Source: an uncultured Gammaproteobacteria bacterium
GTDB taxonomy: Bacteria > Pseudomonadota > Gammaproteobacteria > Steroidobacterales > Rariloculaceae
Assembly (NCBI GenBank): GCA_963741255.1
Contig: CAVUHM010000001.1
Span: 10,675 to 74,674 of the forward strand
Direction of reading: 5' to 3'
Length of the DNA: 64,000 bases
This document shows positions 3,406-53,807 of this stretch, one piece after another. Positions within the stretch are counted from its first letter, which is position 1. The number at the start of each line of letters is the position of its first letter. Under the pieces are notes generated by a model. That model saw nothing but the letters and a program-made list of their open reading frames with translations, was not told where the DNA came from and ran no database searches. The translations under genes and the position numbers were made by a program.

Positions 3406-5085
3406 GTGAAGCAGCCAGGCATCTTGAACCGACGAACGTGGCTGCTAGGGAGCGGCGCACTGACGGTCGCCGCGCTCGCGCGTGCGATACCGCTGCTCGG
3501 TCAGGAAGAATCCGCGCCGGGCCGCGTGGTAGACACGGCGAACGGTAAAGTCCGCGGGCTCGCGCAGCGCGGCGTCCAAGTCTTCAAAGGAATTCCTTAC
3601 GGTGCACCGACGAGCGGTGCGAGTCGCTTCAGGCCGCCGCGCAAACCAGAGTCGTGGCGCGGCATTCGCGAGGCGGCGTCCTATGGGTTGCGCGCGTATC
3701 AGCCCCCGCGGCCGATGATCCCAGAGATCGGCGACGCGCTGACGGGCAGCGGCCCGATGAGCGAGGACTGCCTGCGGCTGAACGTTTGGACGCCCCAGGT
3801 CGGGCGAGGCTCGCGCCCCGTGATGGTTTGGTTTCACGGCGGCGGGCAGCGTACGGGGTCCGGCAATTCGATCTTCTACGACGGCACCGAGCTCGCGCGA
3901 CAGCACGATGTCACCGTCGTCACCGTTACGCATCGACTGAACGCCTTCGCCTATCTCTGGCTGGCCGGTCTCCCGGGCGCTCGCGAGCGCTTCGCCGACT
4001 CGGCGAATCTCGGGCTCCGCGACCTGGTGCTCGCGCTCGAATGGGTGCGCGACAACATCGCTGCATTTGGCGGTGACCCACACAACGTCACCGTGTTCGG
4101 CCAATCCGGAGGCGGCGGCAAGACGGCGATGCTCACGGGCTTCCCTGCGGCACAGGGACTCTTCCAACGCGCCATCATAATGAGCACACTCGCGGACACG
4201 GCCCTGACGGGTCTCGAACCGGAGCATGCCGTGGAAGCGGCGGAGCTGCTGCTGCGGCGCCTCGGCATCGCGGCGCCGGATGCCGCGCGGCTCGAGAAAC
4301 TGCCGCCCGAGGCGATCGTCGCCGCCCTCGCGAGCGATGCGACTGCCGGCGAGCGGCCGGCGCCCGATCTCTCGCAACGTTACGTGCCGGTCGTCGACGG
4401 CACGACGTTGCCCGCACATCCGTTCGAGCCGTCCGCCTCGCCGCTCTCGGCCGCGGTCCCCATTCTCACGGGGTCGAACGAGTGCGAGGCGGTTCCTTAC
4501 GGCAACCCGAACGACGCTTATTGGGCGAGCGAGCCCACGAACGACGGTGAGCTGCGCGCGGCGCTGCAGCGCATCGTTACGCTCGACGACGCGGCCGCGG
4601 ACCGCCTGATCGCGCTGTATCGCACGAACCGCCCGACTGCTACACCGGGCGATCTGGCGGCGATCATGGCCGGCGATAACTCGCCACTCCGCTTATCGTC
4701 GTACACGATCGCCGCGCGCAAGTTCGCTCAGGGCGTGGCACCCGTTTATCTCTACTACTTCGATTGGTACTCGCCTGTGCGCGACGGCAAGCTGCGCGCG
4801 ATGCACGGCATGGAGCTACCGTTCGTTTTCGCTCACCCGGATCTCGTGCGTTTCATGACTGGCGTGGGCGAGGAGCGCTACGAGCTCGCGCGGAAAATGA
4901 GCGCGGCGTGGGTGGCCTTTGCGCGCACCGGCAACCCCAACCACGATGGCATTCCACGCTGGGAGCCGTGGAACCCTACTCGCTGGCCGACGATGATGTT
5001 CGGCCGCGAGGTGCGCGCCGCCGACGATCCGTGGGGCGACGAGAGGCGCGCAATGGCGGCCGCGCGCGACGCTCAGGCACGCTAA
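3406..5085 (+). CDS. type-B carboxylesterase (para-nitrobenzyl esterase-like), TAT/Sec exported
   Basis: Intact 559-aa ORF with a GTG start. N-terminus NRRTWLLGSGALTVAA. Motifs EDCLRLNVWTP, WFHGGG and GQSGGG (GxSxG) are typical of the COesterase family. Confidence 0.9.
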   Translation: MKQPGILNRRTWLLGSGALTVAALARAIPLLGQEESAPGRVVDTANGKVRGLAQRGVQVFKGIPYGAPTSGASRFRPPRKPESWRGIREAASYGLRAYQPPRPMIPEIGDALTGSGPMSEDCLRLNVWTPQVGRGSRPVMVWFHGGGQRTGSGNSIFYDGTELARQHDVTVVTVTHRLNAFAYLWLAGLPGARERFADSANLGLRDLVLALEWVRDNIAAFGGDPHNVTVFGQSGGGGKTAMLTGFPAAQGLFQRAIIMSTLADTALTGLEPEHAVEAAELLLRRLGIAAPDAARLEKLPPEAIVAALASDATAGERPAPDLSQRYVPVVDGTTLPAHPFEPSASPLSAAVPILTGSNECEAVPYGNPNDAYWASEPTNDGELRAALQRIVTLDDAAADRLIALYRTNRPTATPGDLAAIMAGDNSPLRLSSYTIAARKFAQGVAPVYLYYFDWYSPVRDGKLRAMHGMELPFVFAHPDLVRFMTGVGEERYELARKMSAAWVAFARTGNPNHDGIPRWEPWNPTRWPTMMFGREVRAADDPWGDERRAMAAARDAQAR

Positions 5086-5183
5086 CACGCCGCCGTCGCG
5101 CGACACGATCGCTCCGAGCGTCGCTGCGATCTGCTACAAATTATCGATACCGAGCTGATGACAACGAGCGGGGAAAACCGGTG

Positions 5184-7011
5184 ATGGGACGTTGGGTCGC
5201 CTATGCGGCAGTGTGTGCGTGCGCGCTCGTGGCCTCTTGGACGACAGTCGCTCAGCCCGACCTCGACGGGGACTGGCGCTCGATACGGCACGAGGATTTG
5301 CCCGATCGCGGCCCGGGAGTCGGCCTCGGCGATTACGCGGGCATTCCGCTGACGGACGCCGCGAGGCAATTCGCCGAGAGCTGGGACGCGGCGCGGCTCA
5401 GCATGCCGCAGCAGCAGTGCCGCGTGCATGCGTCGCCGTACAGCTATCGCGGCCCGCTGAACTTGCGGATTTCCGCCGAGCGCGACCCGCGTACGCAGGA
5501 AGTCGTCGCCTACCGGCACTACATCAGCACGTACGAGCAAACGCGCACGATCTGGATGGACGGCCGGCCGCATCCTCCGCCGCTACGCTCCGCACACGTG
5601 GATGGGGTTCTCGACGGGGCGGTGGCAGGGTGACCGGCTCGTCGTCGAGACGACGCACATCAAGAACGGCTGGCATCGACGCAACGGTGTACCGATGAGC
5701 GATCGGGCGACGATGACCGAATATCTCGTCCCGCACGAGGACACGTTCACGCACATCGCCGTGATTCGCGATCCCGTCTATCTGACGGAGCCGTGGGTCA
5801 AGACGCAGCACTTCGAGATCATGCGGCGCGCATTGCCGGCCAACGCCTGGCTCTGGCCGTGCACGGTCGTCGAAGAGGTGGACCGCGATCCGAACGAGGT
5901 GCCGCACTATCTGCCCGGCAAGAACCCCTATATGGCGGACTACCGCGCCGAGGTGCATCTCGACGTGCCGGGCGTCGGCGGCGGTGCCGCTACGCTGCTG
6001 CCGGAGTTCGCGCGGCGAGTGGCGAACGAGCCCGCGACGCCGGCGCAACCGCCCCGACGCAGCGGCCGTGCCGCGTCGGCGCGTCGAGCAGGCACCGCCG
6101 CGAAGCCGGCCGCTCAGCCGACCGACGCGATCGAAACTTGGCAGATCCGCGACAACGTTTACATGCTGGTCGGCGCGGGCGCCAACACGACGGTGCATAT
6201 CGGGCTCGATGGCGCCGTGGTCGTCGACCCCAAGCTCGAGGGCGCGAGCGACCGGTTGCTCGCCGCCATCCGCGCGCTCACGCCGCTGCCGATCCGCTTC
6301 GTCATCAATACGCACGTGCACGCCGATGCGATGGGCGGCAACCAAGCCGTGGCCGCCGCCGGCGCGACTCGCACGGGCGGCGTCGTCGTGCGGACGATCG
6401 GCACCGAGCTTCACCGAAGCGGCCGCGATCGTCGCGCACGAGAACGTGCTGGCGCGAGTCTCGACGCCGGGCCCCGACGAGCGACCGCAGCGCGCGTGGC
6501 CGACCGATACGTTCTTCGGCACGCGCCGCGAGTTCGCCGTCAACGGCGACGGCGTCGAGCTGCGGCATTTCCCGAACGCGCACACGGACGGCGACACGAT
6601 CGTCTATTTCCACCGTGCCGACGTGATCGCCGTCGGCGACCTCTTCAGCACCGAGACGCTACCCCGTCATCGATCTCGAGCGCGGCGGCTCGGTGCAGGG
6701 CCTGCTCGCGGCGCTCGACACGATCATCGAGCTCGCGATTCCCGACGTCGATCACGAAGGCGGCACGATGATCGTGCCGAGCCACGGCTATCTGGCCGAC
6801 GAGTTCGACGTGGCCGAGTATCGCGACATGTTGGCGATCGTGCGCGACCGCGTGCGGGACATGCTCGATCGCGGCCTCACGCGCGCCGAGATCCAGGCCG
6901 CTCGGCCGACGTTCGATTGGGACGCGCGCTACGGTGCGGAGTCCGGGCGAGTGGACCACCGCCATGTTCGTCGACGCCGTGATCACGAGCCTGAGCCAGA
7001 GGAGACGTGCG
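5184..7011 (+). pseudogene. GDTLV-motif periplasmic domain (unassigned family) followed by a metallo-beta-lactamase-fold domain; frame broken about 4 times; may be a fusion or two genes
   Basis: Signal peptide MGRWVAYAAVCACALVASW. N-terminal domain has GDW...GDYAGIPLT...GRWQGDRLVVETTHIKNGWHRRNGVP. An Ala/Pro-rich linker follows. The MBL domain has VINTHVHAD (HxHxD) and NAHTDGDT. Read by joining ORFs 4764-5633, 5602-6771, 5984-6982, 6693-7727 and 6934-7548. The 3' end is unresolved. Confidence 0.55.
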
Positions 7012-7909: not shown

Positions 7910-9501
7910 ATGCTTGGGGGACTGCTGCATAGCCGTGGGCATTGGGCGCTGGGTTTATTGATCACTGTCGTTGTTGCCGCGCCGGCGCTGGCGGCCGACG
8001 ATCCGCTCATCGCGGCGGCGAGGGCCGGCGACGTTGGCGGCGTACGCAAGCTCATCGGCGAGCGCGCCGACGTCAACGCGCAGTCCGCAGACGGTTCCAC
8101 GCCGCTGCTCTGGGCCGCCTACAACGGTGAGCCCGCGATGGTGGAGGCGCTGCTCGAAGCGGGCGCCAAGCCCGACACCGCGAACCGCTACGGCGTGACA
8201 CCGTTGCTGCAAGCGAGCCGTGCCGGCGACGCGGCCGTGATCGCGACATTGCTCGAGCATGGCGCGAACGCCGCGCTCGGGCACCCGGACGGCGAGACGC
8301 CGCTGATGGGCGCCGCACGCGTGGGGCGCATCGAAGCCGTCGAGCTGTTGCTCGCGGCGGGCGTCGACGTCAACGCTGTCGATGCGTTCCAGCACGAGAC
8401 CGCGCTGATGCGTGCAGCCGCTGAGGGGCACACGGTGGTCGTCGATCGGCTGCTCGCAGCCGGCGCTGACCCGAACGGCCAAGCGCGTGTCACCGCGCTC
8501 AAGGATCGCAAGAACGCCGACTATCCGAGCGGCGGTTTCTCGGCCCTGATGTGGGCCGTGCGTAACGGCCATGTCGATGTCGTGCGGCGGCTCGTCACCG
8601 CCGGCGCGGATCTCAATGCGCGGAACGGCGACGGTGCGACCGCGATGATGATCGCGATCGTCAACGATCGCTACGATCTTGCGGCGGACGCTCGTCGACC
8701 TCGGCGCCGACGTCAACGACGGCTCGCTCTACCACGCCGTCGAGATGCGCGACGCAACGACGGACTGGTACGCGCGCGACGGCTCGAAGCTGCGCGCGAA
8801 TCACCCGAACCGGCACACGGCGCTCGACCTGATCGCACTGCTGCTCGACAAGGGCGCCGATCCCAACAAGCCGTTCGTCGGCCAGATGCACTCGGCGACG
8901 ATGTGCTGCGACACCGTCGCCAACGGCTCGCCGTTCTTCCGCGCCGCGATCGCCGCCGACGTCGTAGCGCTGAAGCTACTGCTCGCGCGCGGTGCGGCTG
9001 TCGAATGGACGCCGAGCAACGCCGACGGCTTGAAAGGCGCCAACACCAACGTCGGCCTGACGCCGTTGATGGTCGCAATGAAAGGCGGCCGTGGCGTGCC
9101 GTTCTCAGCCGGTCCCGGTTTCGTGCGCAAGGGACCGCCTCCGTTTCGCGAGCAGTCGAACCGAGAGCCGGCGCAGGCCGTGAAGCTGTTGCTCGAGGCC
9201 GGTGCGAACCCGAACGCCGTATCGCCGACGAAGGCCACGGTGCTGCACCTCGCCGTGGAAACGCGCAACCTCGAGACGCTCGATGCCTTGATCGCGGCGG
9301 GCGCCTCGCTGAGCGCAAAGAATGCCGATGGGCTCACGCCGCTGCAGGTTGCCGAGAAGCTCAAGCCCGACGATCCGGAGAATCGCAGCCCGTTCGGGCC
9401 GCAGGAGTTCATGCCGGTCGCGACGCCCGCAGCAGATCGTCGCGCTGCTGCGCGAGGCCGCCGCGGCGCCGGCGGTGGCTCACGAGGTCGCAGCGCGGTA
9501 A
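7910..9501 (+). pseudogene. exported ankyrin-repeat protein (copy 1), frame broken about twice
   Basis: Signal peptide (ALGLLITVVVAAPALA). Many repeats of the ankyrin type (G.TPL..AA..G....V..LL..GAD.N). ORF 7910-9889 is valid to about 8680, then ORF 8679-10310 to about 9425, then a third frame ending ...QQIVALLREAAAAPAVAHEVAAR at about 9499-9501. Confidence 0.75.
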
Positions 9502-11944
9502 TGAAGAGGAAGTCGCTCTACGTGGGTGCCGGCAGTGTCGCGGTCGCGGCGGTGGCCGCCGGGGTCGTGCTCCATACGCAGCGCTCGCCGGATGCCGTGC
9601 TGCACGAGCGCTGGGCGATGATCGATCACTACTGCGTCAGTTGCCACAACGATGCCGAGCTCACGGGCGGTGTGTCGTTCGAGCGCCTGAAGCCCGAGAA
9701 CGTCGCGGCCGATGCGCGCATCTGGGAAGCCGCGATCCGCAAGCTCAGGCTCGGCATGATGCCGCCGCGCGAGGAGCCGCAGCCGGAGCCCGGCGTGCGA
9801 GAGTCGTTCGTCGGCGCGCTCGAGTCCACGCTCGACGCTGCGGCCGAGGCTCGGCCGTACGCGGGCGAGCGGATCCGTGCACCGGTTGAATCGCGCCGAG
9901 TACGCCAATGCCGTGCGCGATCTGCTCGGCGTCGAGATCGACGTCGCCGAGCTTCTGCCGAGCGACGGCGGCGACTTCGGCTTCGACAACATCGCCTCGG
10001 TGCTGACCACGTCGCCACTGTTGCTCGAGCGTTATTTGACGGCGGCGCTGCGCATTGCGGATGCGGCGATCGGGGATGTCCAAGCGGCGCCGACGGCGGC
10101 AACGTACAAGATCGGTGTCGAGGTCACGCAGAACCAGCACATGGCGGGGCTGCCGATCGGCACGCGCGGCGGCACCGTCGTTCGCCACAACTTCCCGGCC
10201 GACGCCGAATACGTCCTGTCGGGTCGGCTGCTGAACACGGTGGCCGAGGGGTACTCGGGCGTCGAAGGCCACGACGAGCCGCACGAGTTCGTCATCACGA
10301 TCGACGGTGAGCAGGTGTTCTCCGCGCGGATCGGTGGACCCGAGGACCACGCCGAAAACTCGCGCGACTTTCTTGGCGTCGCACGCCGCCATCGACGAGC
10401 GCATGACGTCGCCGCGGTTGGCCGTCACGGCCGGCCCGCACGAAGTAGGCTTCACCTGGGTCGAGCGTCCGGCCGTCGAGCAGAACGTCTGGCAACCGCC
10501 TCTGCGCGCCACGCAGGAAGTGCACAACCCGTCCGGGCTACCGCGGCTCGAGTCCGCGAGCATCGTGGGGCCGTACGACGCAACGGGCGTTAGCTCCACT
10601 CCGAGCCGCGAGCGCATTCTCGTCTGCCAGCCGCAATCGCCGGCCGACGAGCCGGCGTGCGCCGAACGGATCTTCTCTTCGCTCGCGAAGCGCGCGTTTC
10701 GCCGGCCCGTCGACGCCGAGGACTTGGCTCCGGCGCTTGAGTTCTTCGCGCAGGCACGCGAGGAGGAAGGCAACTTCGACGCCGGCATCAAGGCAGGCAT
10801 TGCGCGCATTCTCGTGAGCCCGTCGTTCCTGTACCGCACCGAGTACGACCCGGCCGATCTCGCGGCAGGCTCTACGCATCGCGTCAGCGATGTCGAGCTC
10901 GCATCGCGGCTGTCGTTCTTCTTGTGGTCCAGCATCCCCGACGACGAGCTGCTCGATGTCGCCATCGATGGCCGCTTACGCTCCGCGAGCGTGCTCGAGG
11001 CGCAGGTGCGGCGAATGATCGCGGATCCGCGTGCCGACGCGCTCGTCCAGAACTTCACGGGGCAGTGGCTGCAGCTGCGTAATCTCGAGCAGCGCGTGGT
11101 TCCGGATTTGCTGCTGTTCCCCGACTTCGACGACAACTTGAGGCAGGCATTCCGCCGCGAGACCGAGTTGCTGTTCGCCGAGGTACTGCGCAGCGATCGC
11201 AGCGTGCTCGAGCTGCTGACCGCGAACTACACCTTCGTCAACGAGCGCCTGGCACGGCACTACGGAATCCCCGGCGTCTATGGCGCGCGCTTCCGCCGCG
11301 TCGAGCATACGGACCCGAACCGCTACGGCCTGCTCGGCCACGGCAGCATCCTGTCGCTGACCTCGGCGGCGACCAGAACCTCGCCGATCATCCGCGGCAA
11401 GTTCCTGATGGCGAACTTCTTGAATAACCCGCCGCCGACTCCGCCGGCCGTGGTTCCGGCGCTCGAGGACAGCGCGCCGAAGGACCGGCCTTCGACGGTG
11501 CGCGAGCAGCTCGAGCGCCATCGCGCGAATCCGAATTGCGCGGTTTGCCATCGAACACTCGACCCGCTCGGGTTCGCGCTCGAGAACTTCGATGCCGTCG
11601 GTCAGTGGCAAGACCAGACGATCGACGGCTTGCCGATCGACGCCGCCGGCGTGCTCGCGGACGGGACGCCCGTCGACGGGCCGCAGCAGCTGCGCGCGGC
11701 GCTGACCGCGAAGCCGGAGGTTTTCGCCGGCGCAGTGACCGAGAAGCTGTTGATCTACGCGCTCGGTCGCGGTCTCGAGCCGGCCGATATGCCCGTCGTG
11801 CGCAGCATCCTGCGCAATGCAATCAAGGACGACTATCGGCTCACGGCCATCGTGCTCGGTATCGTCGATAGTCTTCCGTTTCAAATGCGTACCAAGCCTG
11901 GTGCCTCGAGCGATCTACAGAGCATCGCGCAAGCGAAGGAGTAG
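9501..11944 (+). pseudogene. DUF1592/DUF1588/DUF1585-type large heme-motif protein (copy 1), frame broken about twice
   Basis: Its ATG overlaps the upstream stop (TAATG). N-terminal CVSCHN and C-terminal CAVCHRTLDPLGFALENFD heme-type motifs. Blocks VELASRLSFFLWSSIPDDELL, NFTGQWLQLRNL and TRTSPIIRGKF are as in Planctomycete-type DUF1592/1588 proteins. Joined from the frame of ORF 8679-10310, ORF 9877-10593 and ORF 10307-11944. Confidence 0.8.
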
Positions 11945-11947
11945 CCC

Positions 11948-13276
11948 ATGTTCGTGACGAAAAAGCATCTGCCTCGCCGCACTTTCCTCCGAGGCGCACT
12001 CGGGACGGCCATTGCGTTGCCGTTTCTCGATGCGATGGTGCCGGCGTTCGCGCAGTCGCGCTCGGGCGCTCAGTTGCGCTTCGGCGCGGTGTACCTCCCG
12101 AACGGCATCTACCCGCAGCTCTGGCACCCGGCGAAGCCCGGCCGCGATTTTGAGTTCCAGCAGATCATGAAACCGCTCGAGCCGTACCGCGATCACCTCG
12201 TGACCGTGAGCCAGCTCAAAGCGCCGGACGGCTCGGTGCACCTCGGCGCGAGCGCTGCCTGGTTGAACGGCGTGGGCCCCGTAAACGAGGCCGGCAACTT
12301 CGGCAAGATCGAGTCGAAGAAAACCGTCGACCAATACATCGCCGACGTGATCGCAGGCGACACGCCGCTGCGCTCACTCGAGGTAGGCACCGAAGACATG
12401 GGTACCGCAGCAGGTGCCTGCGACGGCTTCCCATGCGTGTTCTTCAACGCGATCTCGTGGCGCGACGATACGAGCCCGCTGCCGGTGGCGATCAATCCGC
12501 AAGTTACCTTCGAGCGCATGTTCGGCGATCCCGGCACGGCCCAACAGCGTCTTACCCGTCTGCGGCGCAAGCAGAGCATGCTCGATTCAGTCGCGCAGGA
12601 GACAGCGCGCTTGCAGCACAAGCTCGACTCGGCCGACAACCGGCTGCTCGACGAGTATCTGACGAACGTGCGGCGTGTCGAGCAGCAGCTGCAAAAGATG
12701 GAGGCTCGCCGCGACACGCTCGAGGACGCGCCGGCGTCGCCGGTCGGAATTCCCGATGCGTTCGACGATCACCTAACTGTCACGTACGACCTGATGCACC
12801 TTGCGTTTCAAGGCGACATCTCGCGCGTCTTCACTTACATGCTCGGCCACGAGGCGAGCGGCCGTAGCTACGCCAACATCGGCATCTCGGAGCCGCACCA
12901 TCCCGTCTCGCATCACGGCGACAAGCCCGAGGGCATCGAGCGCTACGCGAAGCTCACGACTTATCAGGTGGTCAAGCTCTCGGAGTTCGTCGGTAAGCTC
13001 GCGGCGACGCCGGACGGGGAGGGCACGCTGCTCGATTCGGTCGTGCTCTATTTCGGCAGCGGCATGAGCAACGGCAACGCGCACGATCGCAACAGCCCTC
13101 CTGCGCTGCTCGTCGGCGGAGCGAACGGCAGGCTGCAGGGCAACCGCCACGTCGTCGCCAAGCCGAAGGAGCCGACGGCGAACTTGCTGCTCGCGCTTGC
13201 CGACCTTGCCGGCGCCGAGGTGGAGTCGATCGGCGCCAGTACGGGCCGGCTCGCGCTGCACGAGACCGCCGCCTAA
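11948..13276 (+). CDS. DUF1552 family protein (copy 1), TAT signal
   Basis: Intact 442-aa ORF starting 3 nt after the DUF1592 stop. N-terminus HLPRRTFLRGALGTAIALPFLDAM is typical of DUF1552, the usual partner of DUF1592-type proteins. Confidence 0.9.
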   Translation: MFVTKKHLPRRTFLRGALGTAIALPFLDAMVPAFAQSRSGAQLRFGAVYLPNGIYPQLWHPAKPGRDFEFQQIMKPLEPYRDHLVTVSQLKAPDGSVHLGASAAWLNGVGPVNEAGNFGKIESKKTVDQYIADVIAGDTPLRSLEVGTEDMGTAAGACDGFPCVFFNAISWRDDTSPLPVAINPQVTFERMFGDPGTAQQRLTRLRRKQSMLDSVAQETARLQHKLDSADNRLLDEYLTNVRRVEQQLQKMEARRDTLEDAPASPVGIPDAFDDHLTVTYDLMHLAFQGDISRVFTYMLGHEASGRSYANIGISEPHHPVSHHGDKPEGIERYAKLTTYQVVKLSEFVGKLAATPDGEGTLLDSVVLYFGSGMSNGNAHDRNSPPALLVGGANGRLQGNRHVVAKPKEPTANLLLALADLAGAEVESIGASTGRLALHETAA

Positions 13277-13304
13277 TCGTTCGCCCCAGCCATCGGGGCG
13301 AGGC

Positions 13305-13691
13305 GTCAAGTCATCGGAGCCGCGGGACGAGGTCGCAGTCGGTGCGTCCGTTCGCGGGTCAGCCGGAGCTGATCGAGCGCATTCCGACGAACGGCTCGAC
13401 GCTCCTCATCTGCTCGATGTCGAAGTTGGGCAAGCGCTGTGCCGGGCCGTGCATCTGAATGCAGTCACCGCGGCGCGCGCGGAGCAAGCGCTCGACGACT
13501 TCGGAAATCTGGTGATCGAGCGGCATGCCCATCGCGAGCTGCTCCCGCGGATTTGGCAGCTACGAGACTCGCTAAGCGCGTATGACGGCACATACGTCGC
13601 GCTCGGCGAGGCTCTCGATGCGCCCGTTCTCACGTGTGACACGAAGCTTGCGCGCGCGCACGGCCACCGGGCGCGGATCGAAGTCGTCTAG
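13305..13691 (+). pseudogene. orphan PIN-domain (VapC-like) toxin remnant
   Basis: The C-terminal two thirds read like VapC (APHLLDVEVGQAL...IERHAH..LLPRIWQLRDSLSAYDGTYVALGEALDAPVLTCDTKLARAHGH.ARIEVV). There is no usable start codon. The usual N-terminal D in (I/V)xDAS reads VGAS. No antitoxin ORF lies upstream, because DUF1552 ends at 13276. Confidence 0.45.
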
Positions 13692-13809
13692 GTCGGCGCC
13701 GGGGGGCGCGTCCAAGCACGGTATTCATCGTTTTTCCGTGCTTTTCCCGTTGTGTTCGGGATTTCCGCCTAGCAGGGCGTTATATAGGAACCTCTTGTTG
13801 GGAGCTTCA

Positions 13810-14259
13810 ATGAGAAGAGGAATGGCGTTGTTTGTCGTGCTCGCATCGATGCTGGCGACCGCTGCCTCGCGCGCGCACCATTCGGTCTGGGCAGAATTCG
13901 ACAACGGTCGTCCGCTGGAGCTGCGCGGCCACTTCGTGAAAATGGACTGGATCAACCCGCACTCGTGGGTGCACCTCGAAGTCACGATGGAGGACGGCTC
14001 GAAGGCAGCCTGGGCCGCGGAAACACCGCCTCCGAATCAACTCATTCGGCAGGGCTGGCGGCGCAGCGACATTCAGCCTGGAGACGAGATCGTCGTGCGC
14101 GGCTTCGCGGCCAAGAACGGCACGTATCGCCTCTGGGCGCGGAACGTCCAGATCGTCGCGCGGAACGGCGAGCCGCTGGCGGAACCGCGGACCGTCCTCG
14201 CGTTGCTCGACCCGAACCCGGCCGGCGTGGCCGACGGCGTGTTGCCGGGCCGGAACTGA
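13810..14259 (+). CDS. small secreted protein with predicted mature N-terminus HHS (DUF6152-like, copy 1)
   Basis: GGGAG lies before ATG 13810. Signal peptide ends ...ATAASRA|HHSVWAEFD. It shares NPH, W..E...P......GW and GD blocks with the ORFs at 21601-22029 and 53424-53807. The family name is from memory and needs an HMM check. Confidence 0.75.
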   Translation: MRRGMALFVVLASMLATAASRAHHSVWAEFDNGRPLELRGHFVKMDWINPHSWVHLEVTMEDGSKAAWAAETPPPNQLIRQGWRRSDIQPGDEIVVRGFAAKNGTYRLWARNVQIVARNGEPLAEPRTVLALLDPNPAGVADGVLPGRN

Positions 14260-14299
14260 GCGTGGCCGCGAATCGCCAATTCGATTACGAGGTGCGCGC

Positions 14300-15088
14300 G
14301 TGAGCATTCGCGCCGCGGCGCTCGCCTTCGTCGTCGCGGTTACGCCCGTGCTCGCCGAATCGGTCGCCGCCCAGGAGTTCACGCCGGCGCGCAATCGCCA
14401 CGGTCAGCCGGATTTCGAAGGCATCTGGCAGGTTCTCGATCCGGCCCCGCATTTCAACATAGAGTCGCACGGCGCGAGCTACGGCGTGCCGGCGGGCCTC
14501 GGCATCGTCAAGGATCCCGCCGATGGCCGGATTCCGTACACCGCGGCGGGGCTTGCCAGGCGAGAGACGAATCGTGCGAACCGCGCGGCCGATCCGTTCG
14601 CCCGCTGCTACAAGCCGGGCGTGCCACACCTCATGTACCTGCCGTTTCCGTTGCAGATCGTGCAGTCGGAACATTTCCTGACGATCATGTCCGAGTACAT
14701 GCACAACACGCGGTTCATCTTCTTCAATCGCAGCGACCATTTCGGGGAGGGCGAGCTCGACCTGTGGAACGGCGACTCGGTCGGTCGTTTCGACGGCGAT
14801 TCGCTCGTGACGGACGTGTTCAATTTTCATCCTGACATCTGGCTCGACCGTTCCGGCAATCATGCGGGCGGCGCGACGCTGACGGTCGAGGAGCGCTTCA
14901 CGCTCATAGATGCCGATACGATCCGGTATCGCGCGACGTTGACCGATGCGGAAGACTTCACGCGGCCATGGACGATCGAAACGCATCTCTATCGCCACAA
15001 AGACCCCGCTAAGCAGATTCTCGAGTACGAATGTCATGCCTATGCCGAAAACGCACTCGGGCCGCCCGTGTTGCCGGAAGTGCCGTAG
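14300..15088 (+). CDS. GDTLV-motif periplasmic protein (unassigned family)
   Basis: Intact 262-aa ORF with a signal peptide. Motifs CYKPGVP, GRFDGDSLVTDV, WLDRSGNHAGG, TVEERF, DAEDFTRPWT and C-terminal EYEC are shared with the paralogues at 15102, 20068-21581 and 53809. Confidence 0.8.
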   Translation: MSIRAAALAFVVAVTPVLAESVAAQEFTPARNRHGQPDFEGIWQVLDPAPHFNIESHGASYGVPAGLGIVKDPADGRIPYTAAGLARRETNRANRAADPFARCYKPGVPHLMYLPFPLQIVQSEHFLTIMSEYMHNTRFIFFNRSDHFGEGELDLWNGDSVGRFDGDSLVTDVFNFHPDIWLDRSGNHAGGATLTVEERFTLIDADTIRYRATLTDAEDFTRPWTIETHLYRHKDPAKQILEYECHAYAENALGPPVLPEVP

Positions 15089-15101
15089 GTCGGTGACCAG
15101 C

Positions 15102-16007
15102 ATGCGAGCGCGCCAAAGTCCGTCGAGCACTTGCCGCGGTCATTTCGCCGGCCTGCGGATGCTCATGCTTTTGCTCGTGCTGGCGTCGGCGTCTGCAAGC
15201 GCGCAGCCCGCACTCGAGCGCCTGCCGAACGGCCGGCCGGACCTCGGCGGCAACTGGACCATCGCGGCCAGCATCTCGGATATCTCCGCGAACATCGTGC
15301 GTGTGGACGGCAAGCCAGTCGCCGGCGACGAGCGTGCCATTCCCTACACGCCGGTGTACGCACAGCTCCGTGCCGAAGCCGAGAGCAGGATGTTCGAGGA
15401 ACCGGAGCTGCACTGCTACATGTCGGGCGTGCCGAGCCATCTCTGGCGTCAGGCATATTCCGGTGCGGGCCTCGTCATTCAGCACACCGAAGAGTTCGTC
15501 GTCTTTCTGCACGAGTTTCAGGGTTCGCGGCGCATCGTGTCGCTGACGCGGCGCGAGCATACTCCAGCCGACATCCAGCTGTTCATGGGCGACGGTCTCG
15601 GCCGTTTCGAAGGCGATACGCTCGTCATCGAAACCAGAAACAACAATGCCCTGACCTGGCTCGACACCGGCGGCAATCGGCATTCCGCCCAGCTCGTCGT
15701 CACGGAGCGATTCGTGCCGGTCGACAACGACCGCTACGAGTACGAAGCGACCTTCGTCGATCCTGCGGCGTATACGGCTCCGTGGACGATCGCCGCGCCG
15801 ATGACGCGCGGCCCAACCCGAACGCCGAGATCCTCGAGTTCGCCTGCGTCGAGGGCAACACCGACCATCTGCACTACACCGAAGATGTCGGGGGCACGTC
15901 GATTGCGGCACCGAGTCCGGCGCCGGAGCCGCCAATGCGGCGGGCCCGTCGAACTAGCGAACGCAGCGAACCGCAATCACCTACGGCAGCAGGCGAGGAG
16001 TCACTGA
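15102..16007 (+). pseudogene. GDTLV-motif periplasmic protein (second tandem copy), frame broken near 15810; true stop unresolved
   Basis: Signal peptide ...LMLLLVLASASASA|QP. Motifs HCYMSGVP, GRFEGDTLVIETRNNNALTWLDTGGNRHS, VVTERF and DPAAYTAPWT. The C-terminal EILEFACVEGN is found in the frame of ORF 15131-16867. Confidence 0.6.
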
Positions 16008-17004
16008 TGAGCAACAGGATGGCCGCACTATCGACTTCGAGTGTCCTGCTGGCGCTCGCGGTCGCCTGGTCGGCGACGACGAGCGCGCAGCCGGATGCCG
16101 CGCCGGCGCCGCTCGGCGCCGCCGAGATCCGCGAGATGTTCGACGAGCTCTCGAACTGGGGCCGTTGGGGCGAGAACGATCAGCGCGGAACGCTGAATCT
16201 GGTGACGCCTGCCAAGCGCCGGCAGGCCGCGGCACTCGTGCGCGAGGGTATCTCGGTGTCGCTGTCGCAGAATCTGTCGACGGAGCAGGCGGTCGACAAC
16301 ACGAGGCCGATGCAACTCATCATGACGGCGCAGCCGGGCTCACCGGTCGCCATGGACGAATGGCGCATCTTCTACCACGGGCTGACGTATGCGCACATGG
16401 ATGCGCTCTGTCATGCGCGCTTCGAAGGCAAGGCGTACAACGGCTTCGCTGAGACCGACGCTGCCGAGAGCGGTTGCGCCCGGTCGGGCATCGAGCACCT
16501 CAAGGACGGCGTGCTCTCGCGCGGGATACTGATCGACGTGCCGCGGCTCAAGGGCGTCGACTATTTCGCACCGGGCACACCGGTTCTCGCGAGCGACATC
16601 GAGGCGTGGGAGCGCGAAGCCGGCGTCAGGATCGAATCGGGTGACGTCGTTTTCATTCGCACGGGCCGCTGGGGCCGGCGCTCCGCGAGGGCCCGTTCAG
16701 CCTCCAGGGCGGATCGCCGGGCGTTCACGTCTCGGCACTGCCGTTGCTGCGCGAACGCGATGCGGCCGTGCTCGGCACGGATGTCGGTCTCGACGTCGTG
16801 CCTGCAGGCGTCGAGGGCGTCGTCATCCCGACGCACACCGTTGCGATCGCGAGCATGGGACTTCTGATCATCGACAACGCGGACCTCGAGGAACTGGCTG
16901 CGACGGCGGCGCGCCTCAATCGATGGCAATTCATGTTGAGCGTTGCGCCAATTCCTGTCGCTGGCGCGACCGGCTCTGTGGTGAACGCCATCGCGACGTT
17001 TTGA
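16007..17004 (+). pseudogene. cyclase-family protein (kynurenine-formamidase-like fold), exported; one frame break near 16670-16680
   Basis: Signal peptide MSNRMAALSTSSVLLALAVAWSA. Motifs WGENDQRGTLN, YHGLTYAHMDALCH and a C-terminal AGATGSVVNAIA-type ending. Joined from the frame of ORF 15131-16867 and ORF 16744-17004. Confidence 0.7.
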
Positions 17005-20026: not shown

Positions 20027-20067
20027 GGGTCTGCTCCGTCGCTCGCACGTGAATTAAATTCGAAGTC

Positions 20068-21581
20068 CTACTCTTGCGGACGATTGCAGACCACTTTCGA
20101 GAGCGCCATCCCTTCGCCTTCCACGCGCATGCAAGTCGGGCGATAGCGTTCGCGCACGTAGTACGCGTCCTCGAAGTCTTCTTGCCGCGGGTTCTCCATG
20201 CAGTCGTACTCGAACGGGTGCCGCGCGGCGCTCTTCTTCCAACTGCGCTTGATCGTGAATGGGGCGTCGTAGTACTCCGGGGTCGGTGATCGTCACCTCG
20301 ATATCGATGCTGCTGTTGTCGGGCGAGAGCGTCAGTCGCTCGACGGTGTGCAGCTTCGCGCTGGTCGGTTGCCCGCGCGCGTCGAGCTCGGCGTAGCCGT
20401 TGAATCCAGTGGTATCGATCACCAGCGTGTTGTCTTCCCAGCGACCGACGGAATCGCCGACGTAGCTCGGCTGCAGGCTTGCGGGATGCTCGGCGCCCAA
20501 CCGAACACGCCGCACCATGCGCGGCATCTCGAATAGGATCGTGAGCCTCGTCGGCGGACTGCAGAACCAGGATCTTCTCGCGCGGCATCGTCATCGTGGA
20601 GACGGCGCCGGGGCGGCACGACGTCCAGGCCGTGTGCATGATCTGCCCCGCGGCCATCGCGGCAGCGCCGCGATCGACCAGCGCCCGACCGGCCGTCGAG
20701 AGCGGCGCCTCCGGCACCATGAATCCAAAGGTCTTCGGTTCCCACATGCCGCTCAACCGCGGTGTCGCAGTGGCGGCGGAATCGGTCGTGACCGCAGGGA
20801 TCTCGATCGCTGGCTGCGCGTTGGCCAGCGGCGCGGGTAGTGCGGTGCGCACCGCTGGCTCACCGTCCGCAATCCTGTCGGGACAGATATCGTCGACGAC
20901 GTGCGCGGCGCTGTCTCGGTGGAAGTACAGGACGGTTTCCCAGGGTGCCGTGTAGGTGTCCGGATCCTCGATCGTGAGACGGTCTTCGAGGCGCCCGTCC
21001 GAGAGTACGCGCAGGCGCTCGGTCAGCACCAACTGATCGGAGTGAGGCAACCCCGTCGCGTCGAGCGCCGTGGCGTCGCTGAGTCCGATGGTGCGGATCA
21101 CCAGCGTATCGCCTTCCCAATGACCCACCGGGAAGCCCATCGTAAGCGGCAAGGGCGGGTCGTCGACCGCGCCGCCGGCCAGATCGACGATACGATGCCA
21201 ACGGTACCAGCCGTGGATGAAGGCCAGGTAGTCACCGTCCCGGCGGATCTCGAAGGGATAGGGCATCGTCATCACGCGAGGCATACCGGGCCCAGCACAC
21301 CACGTGGTCTGGTCGAAAGAACTATCGCCGGATTGCAGGCGCTGGAGCCGCTCCGCATGCACGCGGGCGGCCTCGGGCGTGAGTGGCGCCGGCGATCCGT
21401 CCACTGCGAGAAGCCGCTGCGGAGCAGCATCGGGCACCCAGGTGCCGAGCACGGCGTCGGGTCCGCTCGCCACACTGACGTTGTCTGATTTCGGACTGCA
21501 AGCAGCCATTGCGGCAACGCAAGCGAGCACCCCCAGGCGCAGCAGATTGAAGAAGCCGGCGTCGACGTGCAGGGTCCCCAT
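20068..21581 (-). pseudogene. two-domain GDTLV-motif lipoprotein (tandem internal duplication), frame broken about twice
   Basis: GGAGAG lies before ATG 21581, and there is a lipobox LACVAAMAAC. Domain 1 has WCAGPGMP and GHWEGDTLVIRT...DPDTYTAPWE. Domain 2 has GRWEDNTLVIDTTGFNGYAELDARGQPTS and ends HPFEYDCMENP. Joined from ORF 20013-21713, ORF 20054-20527 and a third frame with its stop at 20068-20070. Confidence 0.65.
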
Positions 21582-21600: not shown

Positions 21601-22029
21601 TCACTGGCCGTTGGCCGGCGGGGGCGGAAGCGCCCTGACTCGCGCGGCGACGCCTTCGAGCTGACGACCGTCCTCGAACGTGAGCACGCGCAGCGTCCCA
21701 TAGGGCTCACCATTGCGGGCCGGCGAGAGGAGCATCGTGACCACGTCCCCCGCCTTGACGCTGTTCTTACGCCATCCGAGGTTGACGTTCAGGCTTGGAG
21801 AACCGATCTCCACGGACCACTCCACCTTCCGTCCGCCCGCGTCGTCGACCAGCAGCTGAATATAGGAATGTGGATTCGTCCACTGCACTTCCTTCACCGT
21901 GCCCTCGATGGTGATCTGCTTCGTGTAGTCGAACTCCGCCGTCGAGTGATGCGCCGTTGCGACGCGCACCGAGAGGAGCGCTGTCGCGCCAGTCACGATG
22001 CCGAGAAGACGCCGTCGGCTGACTCGCAT
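21601..22029 (-). CDS. small secreted protein with predicted mature N-terminus HHS (DUF6152-like, copy 2)
   Basis: Intact 142-aa ORF. TAT-like signal SRRRLLGIVTGATALLSVRVATA|HHSTAEFD. NPH motif (WTNPHSYIQLLV). Its stop lies 19 nt upstream of the start of the 20068-21581 gene. Confidence 0.75.
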   Translation of the reverse strand: MRVSRRRLLGIVTGATALLSVRVATAHHSTAEFDYTKQITIEGTVKEVQWTNPHSYIQLLVDDAGGRKVEWSVEIGSPSLNVNLGWRKNSVKAGDVVTMLLSPARNGEPYGTLRVLTFEDGRQLEGVAARVRALPPPPANGQ

Positions 22030-28370: not shown

Positions 28371-30455
28371 TTAGTCGCTCGGCAACGTGAACACGTAGAG
28401 CGCATGGCCGCGCTCGGGCACGCGGATCTCCGGAGTCAGCGTCGCCGGAACGCCGCGTGTGCTGCCCCCGCCGAGCCCGGTAGTGACGGCGATATATTGC
28501 TTGCCGTCGACCGCGAAGCTGATTGGAAATCCTTGCACCGATGTAGCGAGCCGAGTTTCCCAAATCACGTTACCGTCGCGCACGTCGACGGCCTTGAAGC
28601 TCCGATCGAGATCGCCGGCGAACGCCAAGCCGCCGGCTGTCGACAACACCGATGTCAGAAACGACGCACGCTGCTCGAGCGACCAGACTTGCTCGAGCGT
28701 ATCCACGTTGAAGGCCGCAAGCTTGCCGACGTTGCCGTTCGCGCCCGGTGCCACATAGAAACGTCGGTCGGCACCGCCGCTGCTGCCGCCGCCGGGGGTG
28801 AGCTCCACGGCACGCGCGCGCATCGAAGCGCAGCTCTGACTCAGTGGAATGATGAGTTGCCGTGTCGGCGCGTGGAAGCTCATCGCGGGCCAATTCTTGC
28901 CGCCGGCCGTGCTCGGGCACGCGTCGATCCACTCGCCGACTTTTTGGTCGATGATGTCTTGCCGGTAGCGCGGCCGCCCGGTCTCCCGATCGAAGCTGGC
29001 CCAAATGTTCTGCAGCACGGTCTCCGCGTGGCCGATGTAAGCGCCCGTGCGGCGGTCGTTCTTCCACAGGATGCCGTCCTTACCGACCGACAAGACCCAC
29101 TTGTCGGGGCCGGCGTCGACGAGCACGCGTTCGTAGACGACATCGAGGTCGAACGATTCGCCGGGCGCATGCGAGAAGTACCAAGCGAGCTTGCCCGTCG
29201 TCGCGTCGAGCGCGAGCGTCGAGCTCGTGTAGAGCGCGGCGTCGTTGGCGTTCATGCCGCGGCTCGCGGGCATCCACGGTTTTGCCTGCGTCGTGCCCCA
29301 GTACGTGAGGTTGAGCTCGGGATCGTAGCTGCCCGTGATCCACGACTCACCGCCCGCGCGATAGAGATCCGGCAGGCCGCTCCAACTGTCGCCGCCGGGC
29401 TCGTCCGTGAGCGCGATCGTACGAAACCGCCAGAGTTGCTTGCCGTCCTCAGGATCGTAAGCGCTGATGAAGCACTTGGTCTGCTCGAAGATGCTGCACG
29501 TGCCCATGCCTTGGATGATGAGTCCGTTCGCGATGACGGGGCCGCTATTCGTGGCATACACGTCGGGCATGACGACGTCCCACGCGAGCTCGCCGGTGCG
29601 CGCATCGAGCGCGATCAGACGCGCTTCTTGCGGACGGTTGGCCCAGGTGATCGTGCTCTGAAAAATCAGCTTGTTGCCGTAGAGCGAGATGCCGCGCGGC
29701 GCAACGTCGGCGCCGACGTGGTATTCCCAGATCAGGTTGCCCGTGCGCGCGTCGAGCGCTTGCACGATGCCGCCGGTATTGGCGAGGTAGATCGTGCCTT
29801 GGTAGGCGAGCGGGGCGGGTTGGTTGATGCCGCCATCGCGCATCGGCCAAATCCAGGCGAGCTGCAGGCGCTTGGCGTTGTCGGGCGTTATCTCGGCGAG
29901 CGGGCTGAAGCTCGTTGCGCTGTAGTCGTGTCGCAGCATCACCCAGTCGGCAGGATCCGGGCGCCGTAGCGTGTCGTCGGTGACCGGCACGAAGCGCGGC
30001 ACCGTGCCGGCCACCATGACACCCGTGGGCCCTTCCGCTTCGCGAGTAGTGAGGATGGCCGCGGTACCCGGAAGATCCTTGCCGAGGCGCTCCGTCGAGG
30101 CGGCCGTGATGGCCGCTTCGCTCGCCGGGCTGCCGTTGGCTTGCAGCAGATAGGCCACGATATTCGTGTAGGCCTCGACCTCGAGGCCGCCGGGATTGTC
30201 CGGCGGCATCGTCGAGCGCGTCTGCGCGATGAGCTCGTTCGTGCCGCGGTTGCCCCAGCTCGCGACGAACTCGGGTCCCCCGAGTGAGGCGTTCGGCAGT
30301 TGGCGCAGGTTCGCGCCGTGGCAGGTGGCGCAGCTCTGCTCGAACACGGCGCGGCCAGCGGCGGCTTGCTCGGTCGTGAACGCGAATACCGGTTCGCTGT
30401 GAAAGCCAAGCGCCGCGATGATCGCGAGCGAGGCGAAACGTTGCATCGAGCTCAT
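28371..30455 (-). CDS. quinohemoprotein: N-terminal cytochrome c domain fused to a PQQ-type 8-bladed beta-propeller dehydrogenase
   Basis: Intact ORF. The start is probably MSSMQRF at 30455, 7 nt after the lactonase stop. CATCHG heme motif at about residue 50. The rest carries PQQ-dehydrogenase repeats ([38 protein letters not shown]). Confidence 0.85.
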
Positions 30456-30462
30456 CGTGTTT

Positions 30463-31734
30463 TCAATACCGTACGTCCCCACACCACAGCTGAAACAGGC
30501 CGCCGGTCTGCACGTCCTGCTTGTATTGAAACGTCAATCGGCCGTCGGGCTCGATCGAGAACAGAACGATTCGCGGCGGCACGATCTCGACGCTGTTTCC
30601 TCTGCGCCGTTTTATCGGTCCTTCGGACTCGTGGCTCGTGGCCACGAGCGAGCGGCCGTCGGGATGCAGCGCGAACATCCGGACATCGAGGCTCTGCGGA
30701 TCCGCAGATTGGATCAGCCGCGGCTCGCCGGTCGCGGCATCCACGTCCAACACCGCGATTGAATTCTCCATGTTTTCGGCGATGACCTCTTCGCCCTGAA
30801 AAACTTCCTTGCCGCGACCGCGATTCGCGACATACAGCGTCCGGCCGTTGGTCGGATGCATGCGGATCGCCGATGCCGCTTGTCCTGGCTGCGACCGGGT
30901 ACCCGGCGCCAGAAGACTCGTGACGAACAACGGTTCTGCCGAAAGCCGATCGTCCTCGATGCCGAACGTTTGCAGCTGATTCTGCGACTCGATGACCACG
31001 TACACCCATTTGCCGGACGGATGAAATTCGACGTGACGGCAGCGAAAGTCACGGCCGCCGTTCGGCGCTACGGACTGCTTGTTCGTGAGCTGACCGTTGG
31101 CGTAGCCGAATATCTTGAGCGCACCGCGATCTTCTTCTCTTTGGCCCGAAATCGCCTGATTGCCGCGCGCAGGCAGGATGACGGCACGACCGGAGGGCAT
31201 TACGCGAATTTGGTGAGCATAGATTCCGGCATCGAGCGTCGCCGCTTGTCGCACTTCGCCTCCGACCGAGCCGTCGGCGTTGAGGCGATGAACGGCGATT
31301 CCGCTCGGTCGATTGAAAGCGGAGAGTAAGTGCTCGCCTCGAGGGTCGACCGTGATGTGGATCGGCCGATGGCGCAAGCGGACTGCAGCGCCGAGCGGCT
31401 CGAGCGCTCCCGACGAATCGACTTCGAAGGCGTTCAGATAATGGTTCTGCGGATTCGCCGCCGTATGCTCATCGCTGCTCGCGACGTAGAAATGCCGGCC
31501 CCATTGGCACGCTTCCTGAATTTCTTCGGCTACGACGATCGGTTCGCCGAGCTCGACGAGGGATTTACCGTCGTCGGCAATTCGGTAGCGCAACAGTCGG
31601 GGGCCGACGTTGGCATAGATATCCGCCCGCACTCTGTTCGGCTGTTGCGCCCCGAGGAGGCCGAGATGACCGAGCGCTGCCGCGCCGGCTGCGCCCGCCA
31701 AGCCTGCGTTGAATCTACGTCGATGCACGGCCAT
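30463..31734 (-). CDS. lactonase-family 7-bladed beta-propeller protein, TAT signal
   Basis: Intact 423-aa ORF. N-terminus [19 protein letters not shown]. Repeats such as [35 protein letters not shown] and [10 protein letters not shown] are typical of the 6-phosphogluconolactonase/lactonase family. Confidence 0.8.
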
Positions 31735-53423: not shown

Positions 53424-53807
53424 ATGACGTTGCGTTCGGGTTTTTTTGGCGTACTCGTGCTCGTGGCGGGGGCCGCCTACGCGCACCACTCGGCGCCGGT
53501 CTTCTACAACGTCAATGAGCGTACGACCGTTAGCGGCACGGTCACCGAGTTTCGTTTCAGCAACCCGCACGCGATCCTCAAGCTCGAGGTAGTGGGCGCG
53601 GACGGCGAGAAGCAGCAGTGGACGGCCGAGACCACATCGCCGTCGATCTTGCGCCGGCGCGGCTGGAGTCAGACGAGCTTCAAGCCTGGCGACAAGGTGA
53701 AGCTCGAAGGGATGCCTTCGCTCGATGGCACGTATTTGATCCGCATCACGCGCGCGTTCCACGAGGACGGAACTGAAATCGGCCTGCCGCCGGGCACCAA
53801 CAACTGA
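53424..53807 (+). CDS. small secreted protein with predicted mature N-terminus HHS (DUF6152-like, copy 3)
   Basis: In the frame of ORF 52149-53807, from MTLRSGFFGVLVLVAGAAYA|HHSAPVFYN. NPH motif (FSNPHAILKLEV), W.AE..SP....RGW and PGDKV. A TATATT -10-like hexamer lies about 15 nt upstream. Confidence 0.75.
   Translation: MTLRSGFFGVLVLVAGAAYAHHSAPVFYNVNERTTVSGTVTEFRFSNPHAILKLEVVGADGEKQQWTAETTSPSILRRRGWSQTSFKPGDKVKLEGMPSLDGTYLIRITRAFHEDGTEIGLPPGTNN

Follow-up and report, generated by a model that had tools for sequence, protein, structure and literature searches.

Exported DUF6152 proteins with a conserved predicted N-terminal His-His, an OB-like predicted fold and a linked calycin-like partner in a gammaproteobacterial catabolic island: a possible N-terminal-histidine metal site

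The window analyzed here, a 64,000-nucleotide stretch of DNA from an uncultured Gammaproteobacteria bacterium of the Rariloculaceae (contig CAVUHM010000001.1 of assembly GCA_963741255.1), contains three genes for small proteins of the DUF6152 family, referred to as D1, D2 and D3, each of which is followed by a gene for a second protein that is recognized by a GDTLV motif (Table 1). A sequence-only reading of this DNA had proposed that the three open reading frames (ORFs) were homologous, that they belonged to a catalogued family with no assigned function, and that each mature protein would start with a histidine able to take part in a metal site. The ORFs were recovered with lengths of 149, 142 and 127 amino acids (aa) and were 29 to 35% identical to one another, with 31 to 35% identity in tblastn comparisons (E values of 1e-16 to 5e-17). 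A hidden Markov model search placed all three in DUF6152 (PF19649), with scores of 99.4, 115.4 and 92.1 bits for D1, D2 and D3, respectively, against a gathering score of 27 bits and with nearly all of the 98-position model covered. Nothing besides DUF6152 was detected in these proteins by Pfam, and a search of NCBIfam with five of the DUF6152 and GDTLV proteins gave no match. A literature search detected no paper naming DUF6152. The NPH blocks that had been picked out (WINPHSW, WTNPHSY and FSNPHAI) were present, with the NPH histidine 27 to 28 residues beyond the first histidine of the predicted mature protein (estimated earlier as about 30), and the W..E...P......GW and GD blocks were found in all three proteins. 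The GDTLV genes also lay where they had been described, at 40, 19 and 1 nt downstream of D1, D2 and D3.

The start codons chosen for the three genes were backed by homologues of the same length, which for D1 were 149-aa proteins with 96% identity, and a purine-rich or AT-rich stretch was present upstream of each start codon (for D1, GGGAG at 7 nt upstream of the ATG). A protein 100% identical to D2 was found in public data on a 172-kb contig that also encodes a protein identical to D3 (P0133). The reading frames of D1, D2 and D3 were intact, unlike those of several GDTLV genes nearby.

The predicted signal-peptidase junctions of the three proteins, SRA↓HHS, ATA↓HHS and AYA↓HHS, would place histidine at position 1 of the mature protein, and this arrangement was found to hold across the family when the cleavage site was judged from conservation and simple rules. 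The pattern AxA↓HH(S/G/A) was present in 178 of 181 close homologues, all with the HH pair within the first 60 residues and NPH 25 to 26 residues past the first histidine; position -1 was almost always Ala, and position -3 held Ala or Ser in nearly all cases and Val, Gly or Thr in a few. Among the 150 best representatives, 144 had a histidine 25 to 30 residues (nearly always 25 to 26) before NPH, and Ala occupied position -1 in 131 of these. A set of 143 diverse representatives, no pair of which was >50% identical, contained 138 in which Lys or Arg was present in the n-region, the core was hydrophobic and positions -1 and -3, right before the histidine, held small residues; the median position of this histidine was residue 24. 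As AxA↓HH was near-universal in relatives, the junction seen in the three genes of the window was not due to chance. The presence of an invariant HH exactly at the predicted signal-peptidase junction would be hard to explain unless a free N terminus matters. The signal peptide of D2 carries a twin-arginine-like stretch, SRRRLLG, and a basic residue in its c-region. Export of D2 by the Tat pathway was considered and rejected, since the RR pair was not kept in orthologues, and hence Sec export is more likely.

The size of the family and the identity of its conserved residues were then considered. A HMMER scan of 1.84 billion cluster representatives detected 15,428 DUF6152 clusters (50% identity) at an E value of <=1e-3 and 7,752 at <=1e-10, concentrated in soil Acidobacteriota, Gammaproteobacteria and sphingomonads; the closest relatives of the proteins in the window were from metagenome-assembled genomes (MAGs) of Gammaproteobacteria and Acidobacteriota. 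Sequence-weighted conservation among 407 unique family members, in mature numbering, was 0.99 for H1, 0.99 for H2, 0.88 for S3 and 0.90 for D9 in the N-terminal block; 0.98 for N27, 1.00 for P28 and 1.00 for H29 in the NPH block; and 0.94 for W46, 0.95 for E49, 0.99 for G60, 0.92 for W61, 0.99 for G69 and 0.82 for D70 thereafter. Judged from this alignment, the most conserved side chains of DUF6152 are the three histidines and Glu49. All four (H1, H2, H29 and E49) persisted in a divergent HHG...PPH subfamily of Sinorhizobium and Paracoccus, and the Azospirillum protein reads HHG...NPH. No conserved Met was present anywhere in the 407 sequences. Two matched stretches were detected in 7 of the 150 representatives (P0186, P0189, P0196, P0201, P0206, P0251 and P0258), and all six of those that were read contained two DUF6152 domains.

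An AlphaFold2 model of mature D1, built from a 91-sequence alignment, had a mean predicted local distance difference test (pLDDT) score of 77 and a predicted template modeling (pTM) score of 0.70. The elements of the model were ordered b1 (residues 8 to 24), b2 (30 to 37), b3 (43 to 50), a helix (53 to 58), b4 (71 to 79) and b5 (86 to 96), together with two short strands. This is the strand order of the oligonucleotide/oligosaccharide-binding (OB) fold, and mature DUF6152 is, as modeled, an OB-like beta-barrel. Foldseek comparison of the model with the PDB gave weak OB-fold matches (best E value, 0.027; template modeling [TM] scores of <=0.5), including SSB, the MCM N-terminal domain, the Mop domain of ModE, the anticodon-binding domain of LysRS and B subunits of AB5 toxins, and no LPMO (lytic polysaccharide monooxygenase), CopC, cupredoxin or DUF4198-like structure was detected. 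A PDB sequence search with D2 alone found no match. The family profile gave a subthreshold PDB match (E value of 0.0066) to a type II 3-dehydroquinate dehydratase, 6smf, in which the aligned pattern was A-x-HxS ... E-V-x-x-S/T-NPH; this was dismissed as chance, the two folds being different.

Residue couplings were examined by mean-field direct coupling analysis (DCA) of the 407 sequences (effective number of sequences, about 180). The top pairs reproduced the expected antiparallel ladders b1/b2, b2/b3, b1/b4 and b4/b5, indicating that the signal was meaningful. In the b2/b3 register Trp31 paired with Glu49, and a common face would therefore carry His29 and Glu49, separated by a few angstroms. 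Ser30, which follows NPH, was coupled to the helix residues Pro52, Leu56 and Ile57, and Glu7 of the N-terminal block HHSxxAEFD was coupled to Pro52 and Leu56. By topology, P53, G60, W61, G69 and D70 flank the same helix. Overall, nearly all of the invariant residues, including those of the N-terminal block, His29 and Glu49, appeared to map to the helix-capped end of the modeled barrel, a distribution that fits, and lends some weak support to, a single functional site.

Linkage to the GDTLV gene was assessed in the best 80 of at least 557 encoding stretches, taken with one genome per species; these loci were mostly from Acidobacteriota (Bryobacterales, Vicinamibacterales and Terriglobia) and gammaproteobacterial MAGs. 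A GDTLV gene was present in 79 of the 80 foreign loci, and in 76 one to four copies were immediately adjacent on the same strand (downstream only in 37, upstream only in 35 and on both sides in 4), compared with adjacency in three of three cases in the window. The motif in the proteins encoded downstream of DUF6152 varied between GDTLV, GDSLV and GDTLI. Natural fusions of the two proteins were also detected as four distinct sequences from separate assemblies (P0300 and P0460 to P0462); the 435-aa protein P0300 has a DUF6152 domain at residues 18 to 132, a Pro/Ala/Thr-rich linker and a GDTLV domain at residues 244 to 422. The adjacency and the fusions together indicated that the proposal of a two-component unit, made earlier from the gene order of the window, was well supported. 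Several genomes carried multiple DUF6152 loci.

A different partner was found in some cultured bacteria. In plasmid and chromid sequences from Sinorhizobium meliloti, Paracoccus versutus, Comamonas antarctica and Azospirillum brasilense, the gene directly after DUF6152 encoded, in place of a GDTLV protein, a protein of the DUF6644/DUF2214 type with four transmembrane (TM) helices. The DUF6152 proteins paired in this way were mostly of the HHG...PPH variant. DUF6152, GDTLV and tandem DUF6644 genes were close together in a Novosphingobium humi locus and in three MAG loci. DUF6644 contains an invariant histidine in TM1 as well as invariant Arg, Lys and Trp residues, and the literature on DUF2214 and DUF6644 yielded only incidental mentions. 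The gene order recalls those of CopC-CopD, YcnI-YcnJ and Ang-HupE/UreJ. Identification of DUF6644 as a CopD-like permease was rejected, as hhalign comparison with Escherichia coli YebZ gave a probability of 1% and a profile search of the PDB gave nothing significant.

All of the GDTLV proteins had signal peptides or lipoboxes. No Pfam or NCBIfam match was obtained for them, none was precomputed for 120 database homologues, and the best match of a GDTLV profile in the PDB was CNRIP1, with an E value of only 0.12. A structural class was suggested by the AlphaFold2 model of the mature protein encoded next to D1 (G1), which was of high confidence (pLDDT, 93.6; pTM, 0.89). The best Foldseek matches of this model were the retinoid- and fatty-acid-binding proteins CRABP, CRBP and FABP (probability, 0.99 to 1.0; target-normalized TM score, 0.5 to 0.64), and on this model the GDTLV partner is a ligand barrel of the calycin type, extended by an additional N-terminal region. 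The E values of these matches were only 2e-3 to 1e-2, and the likeness to FABP and CRBP is hence an analogy of fold and not a demonstrated homology. Residues conserved among 142 diverse members included a G-x-W in the first strand, a separate G-x-W-x-G-D-T-L-V block, and Cys79, Gln98, Glu108, Arg114, Glu174, Arg175, Asp192, Glu218 and Cys221; from its conservation, the pair Cys79 and Cys221 is likely to form a disulfide.

The window contains further GDTLV copies, not all of them intact. The frame of G1b, a second paralogue downstream of G1, was broken near 15810 to 15830, with the expected C terminus PNAEILEFACVEGN running on in another frame. The barrel of G2b follows that of G2a without an intervening stop codon and has frame breaks near 20530 and 20250. 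A fourth copy, with a frame break near 5600, is flanked by a carboxylesterase and a metallo-beta-lactamase-fold domain and has no adjacent DUF6152 gene; a calycin-like GDTLV protein can thus occur without DUF6152, beside hydrolases. Other large ORFs of the window also looked split, and the broken frames are either indel errors of the assembly or pseudogenes.

Table 1. Features of the window (positions of the whole stretch) and DUF6152-DUF6644 pairs of foreign loci
Feature	Position	Strand	Remarks
D1, DUF6152, 149 aa	13810-14259	+	ORF; PF19649, E 1.3e-28
D1 signal peptide MRRGMALFVVLASMLATAASRA	13810-13875	+	predicted
D1 mature His-His-Ser start	13876-13884	+	predicted
D1 NPH	13954-13962	+	
D1 Glu49 (mature numbering)	14020-14022	+	
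D2, DUF6152, 142 aa	21601-22029	-	ORF; PF19649, E 1.3e-33
D2 signal peptide	21951-22029	-	predicted
D2 mature His-His	21951-21946	-	predicted; signal peptide ends in ATA
D2 NPH	21876-21868	-	
D3, DUF6152, 127 aa	53424-53807	+	ORF; PF19649, E 2.5e-26
D3 mature His-His	53484-53489	+	predicted; signal peptide ends in AYA
D3 NPH	53562-53570	+	
G1, GDTLV secreted protein, 262 aa	14300-15088	+	GTG start; signal peptide
G1b, second GDTLV paralogue	15159-16007	+	GDTLVIET; 32% identity with G1 (tblastn, E 4e-23)
G2a and G2b, GDTLV	20054-21581	-	downstream of D2
G2a, lipoprotein-type GDTLV	21581-20844	-	lipobox AMAAC
G3, GDTLV, 263 aa	53809-54600	+	probable lipobox LAGC
Fourth GDTLV copy	5170-5900	+	
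Carboxylesterase	3406-5085		with the metallo-beta-lactamase-fold domain in region 3406-6800
Tannase/feruloyl esterase	54643-56235	+	likely operon neighbor, 42 nt past G3; PF07519, E 7e-107
PQQ-dependent dehydrogenase ORFs (three)	28374-30533, 32602-34074, 37497-38744		two with cytochrome c domains (quinohaemoproteins)
DUF1592/1595/1588/1585 and DUF1552 pair	10235-13276		upstream of D1
DUF1592/1587/1595-type ORF	47405-48862		
Long ankyrin-repeat ORFs (two)	7910-9889, 51786-53334		the latter directly upstream of D3
DUF6152-DUF6644 pair, locus L082	6962-7827		
DUF6152-DUF6644 pair, locus L083	7001-7864		
DUF6152-DUF6644 pair, locus L086	6019-6872		
DUF6152-DUF6644 pair, locus L085	5923-6835		

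The surrounding genes showed that the window is a catabolic island. Its esterases and hydrolases comprised two tannase/feruloyl esterases, a carboxylesterase, a GDSL lipase and a PETase/chlorophyllase-like hydrolase, and in addition to the pyrroloquinoline quinone (PQQ)-dependent dehydrogenases there were a molybdenum hydroxylase with its 2Fe-2S subunit, a cyclase, an enolase-superfamily protein, SnoaL and EthD. A Pfam scan of 97 same-strand neighbors of the 80 foreign loci gave a similar list, of which the commonest entries were COesterase (7), Beta-lactamase, BD-FAE and Abhydrolase_3 (6 each), and the outer-membrane barrel OMP_b-brl_4, PQQ and SSF symporters (5 each). A PQQ dehydrogenase was present in 16 of the 80 loci according to a looser BLAST cluster whose representative was judged by eye. 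A promoter and terminator scan of positions 13200 to 16300 detected nothing above the shuffled background. The adjacent pair of genes upstream of D1 is of the Planctomycete type, DUF1552 being the HXXSHH family, and a further DUF1592-type ORF was present elsewhere; the functions of the DUF1592-type and DUF1552 proteins are uncharacterized. Ankyrin-repeat proteins are unusual in bacteria, and the frames of the two long ankyrin-repeat ORFs of the window looked partly disrupted.

Our preferred explanation, which is tentative and to which we assign a probability of about 0.42, is that DUF6152 is an exported OB-like protein with an N-terminal-histidine metal site that acts as the partner of the GDTLV calycin in a periplasmic catabolic unit. 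Under this explanation, DUF6152, of ~100 residues when mature, would be exported, with cleavage by signal peptidase I immediately ahead of His-His. A mononuclear transition-metal site would then be formed at the helix-capped end of the barrel by the free N terminus, His1, His2, His29 and Glu49, with a possible contribution from Asp9 or Asp70. The metal would be carried by DUF6152, acting together with the GDTLV protein or proteins encoded next to it (secreted or lipoproteins), whose barrel probably holds a small hydrophobic or carboxylate ligand, and the two proteins would form a periplasmic two-component unit of esterase- and dehydrogenase-rich catabolic loci and would not serve metal homeostasis. 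The metal site is supported by the precedents of YcnI, DUF4198, DUF6702, Ang-1 and Ang-2, all of which were domains of unknown function and all of which bind metals. The catabolic neighbors, the lack of metal genes and the multiple loci per genome argued against housekeeping metal trafficking, and a role for DUF6152 in the periplasm, within the breakdown of esters, alcohols and hydrophobic acids, is favored.

Several observations weigh against a metal site of this kind. The N-terminal ten residues of the D1 model, with a mean pLDDT of 67, were its least confident structured part. In the tandem proteins P0189, P0201, P0206 and P0251, the internal second domain retained HHS(Y) and had lost the NPH histidine, while the second domain of P0186 kept DPH, the W and the E and lacked HH. 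These second domains look degenerate, but the retention of an internal HHS that lacks a free amine suggested that HH may also have a role that is independent of the amine. The three conserved tryptophans, with the conserved His, Glu and Asn, would also suit a site for an organic ligand or a glycan. No gene for Cu, Ni or Zn homeostasis (transporter, regulator or chaperone) was detected among the scanned genes of the window or the 97 foreign neighbors, an Rfam scan of the whole window gave 0 matches and hence no metal riboswitch, and no invariant His/Cys cluster marking a metal recipient was present in the 142 GDTLV members. An OB barrel that is not a metalloprotein, and that instead binds a glycan, an aromatic acid or a peptide or serves as a lid or adaptor subunit of the calycin, with a structural or partner-binding role for the N-terminal HH, would be consistent with the tryptophans, the gene context and the internal HHS of the second domains; moreover, oligosaccharides and oligonucleotides are the classical ligands of OB folds, and the Foldseek matches included Mop domains and the B subunits of AB5 toxins. 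On such an explanation, however, the presence of HH at the junction in about 97 to 99% of a family with thousands of clusters and the ranking of three His and one Glu as the most conserved side chains are hard to explain, and we consider it unlikely.

Explanations that retain a metal differ in what the metal would do. The predicted histidine at +1, the further invariant histidines, the spread of a paralogue-rich family in catabolic and not homeostasis loci, as is seen for LPMO genes, and a calycin partner that could bind a substrate would all be expected of a canonical, redox-active copper histidine brace, in which the amine and N-delta of His1 and the N-epsilon of His29 (or His2) would ligate copper and the two proteins would work in the periplasm as an oxidase or (per)oxygenase, with the calycin-held ligand as substrate. 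We regard this as rather unlikely, because the predicted fold is unrelated to those of known brace proteins, no copper-handling genes are nearby, there is no obvious electron donor in the operons, HHS is found internally in tandem domains, and two of four recently described N-terminal-histidine DUFs favored Ni over Cu. The interpretation given in the sequence-only reading is supported in part; its suggestion of a brace as in LPMOs, CopC and PmoB received no support from the predicted fold or the gene context, and a copper histidine brace in DUF6152 is unproven. A two-subunit periplasmic metallo-oxidase or (per)oxygenase in which the OB subunit presents a His-His/His/Glu center of Cu (or Ni/Fe) to a hydrophobic substrate held by the calycin, with DUF6644 in other lineages connecting this module with the membrane, for electrons or metal, is distinctly improbable. 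Noncatalytic capture of a metal and its hand-off, as by a chaperone or "anglerase", to GDTLV here and to DUF6644/DUF2214 in alpha- and betaproteobacteria would account for the position of DUF6644/DUF2214 directly after DUF6152 in the four cultured species, for the invariant TM1 histidine and for an architecture parallel to those of the Cop, Ycn and Ang systems. This too appears rather improbable given that DUF6644 is not detectably CopD-like, that the window has no DUF6644 gene, that genes for metal homeostasis do not usually occur at least three times within 64 kb or at several loci of one genome, and that the neighbors are catabolic and GDTLV lacks a conserved cluster of metal ligands.

Secreted proteins with a histidine at position 1 have repeatedly proved to be unexpected metalloproteins, as with LPMOs, CopC and YcnI and, in 2025, DUF4198, DUF6702 and Ang. 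DUF6152 was already known as a catalogued, uncharacterized family. The new elements here are the family-wide N-terminal His-His/His/Glu signature on a predicted OB-like scaffold and the near-obligate, unannotated calycin-like partner, together with an alternative four-TM partner. The near-obligate pairing with a calycin-like protein in loci rich in esterases and PQQ dehydrogenases suggests a function in periplasmic catabolism rather than in metal homeostasis. A real site would provide a new metal-binding scaffold and a function for two large uncharacterized families; if the oxidase or (per)oxygenase explanation is true, N-terminal-histidine chemistry would gain both a new fold and a new quaternary logic, in thousands of soil-bacterial clusters. 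These possibilities are directly testable in the cultured hosts Novosphingobium, Sinorhizobium meliloti, Paracoccus versutus and Azospirillum brasilense.

Comparison with known systems indicated partial likenesses for both proteins. The predicted GDTLV barrel has the same architecture as FABP, CRBP and CRABP, with a G-x-W in the first strand and a conserved Arg on a predicted barrel strand; FABPs bind carboxylates through Arg. The GDTLV proteins differ in their length (~240 residues), in an additional stretch of ~90 residues at the N terminus, in being secreted or lipoproteins, in having a conserved Cys pair and in not belonging to the Pfam lipocalin/FABP families. For DUF6152, a known small periplasmic OB-fold metal protein is CusF, a Cu(I)/Ag(I) chaperone encoded in cusCFBA, which has a conserved Trp near a site made up of a His and two Met residues, with a cation-pi contact from the Trp. 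No Met is conserved in DUF6152, whose genes have no efflux genes close by, and CusF was not among the top 50 Foldseek matches of the D1 model. A literature search for OB-fold periplasmic metal proteins bearing histidine at the N terminus found no papers.

With the canonical copper proteins of the histidine brace (brace as defined in PMC10952591), namely, LPMOs (AA9 to AA17), CopC and PmoB, DUF6152 shares secretion, a predicted His1 and another conserved histidine about 30 residues on. In such a brace, the imidazole of a second histidine reaches the metal held by the N-terminal amine and imidazole, giving a T-shaped 3N geometry. The brace proteins have an Ig-like or FnIII sandwich or a cupredoxin-like fold, whereas DUF6152 is predicted to be OB-like and has no homology to them and no copper context, and the invariant His2 of DUF6152 is not a feature of the brace. 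YcnI (DUF1775) of Bacillus subtilis binds Cu(II) in a mono-histidine brace that includes a conserved His1 following the signal peptide; its ligands are the N-terminal amine, the imidazole of the histidine and a Glu, close to which lies a conserved Trp (PMC8424229). DUF6152 resembles YcnI in His1, Glu49 and the conserved tryptophans but has no sequence relationship to it, possesses two N-terminal histidines and a third invariant one, and is predicted to be OB-like. Furthermore, YcnI genes adjoin copC, copD or PCuAC, whereas DUF6152 genes adjoin genes for calycin-like or DUF6644 proteins and for catabolic enzymes.

Another parallel is offered by DUF4198, DUF6702, Ang-1 and Ang-2, which were found by "signal strapping" from a conserved histidine following the signal peptide and which bind Ni, Co or Cu in noncanonical two- or three-histidine braces (PMC12537917). 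Two of these four prefer Ni over Cu (PMC12537917), and hence copper is not to be assumed for DUF6152. A beta-sandwich is seen for DUF4198 in a crystal structure and for DUF6702 in an AlphaFold3 model; DUF4198 is encoded beside TonB receptor and NikR genes, and Ang-1 and Ang-2 are fused to HupE/UreJ permeases (PMC12537917). DUF6152 was absent from that paper and its supplements as searched and, unlike DUF4198 and Ang, it has no metal-linked neighbors. It shares with these families the N-terminal-histidine hallmark, which is 99% conserved, on a different predicted fold, and an N-terminal-histidine metal site in DUF6152 is plausible and would be new for this OB-like fold.

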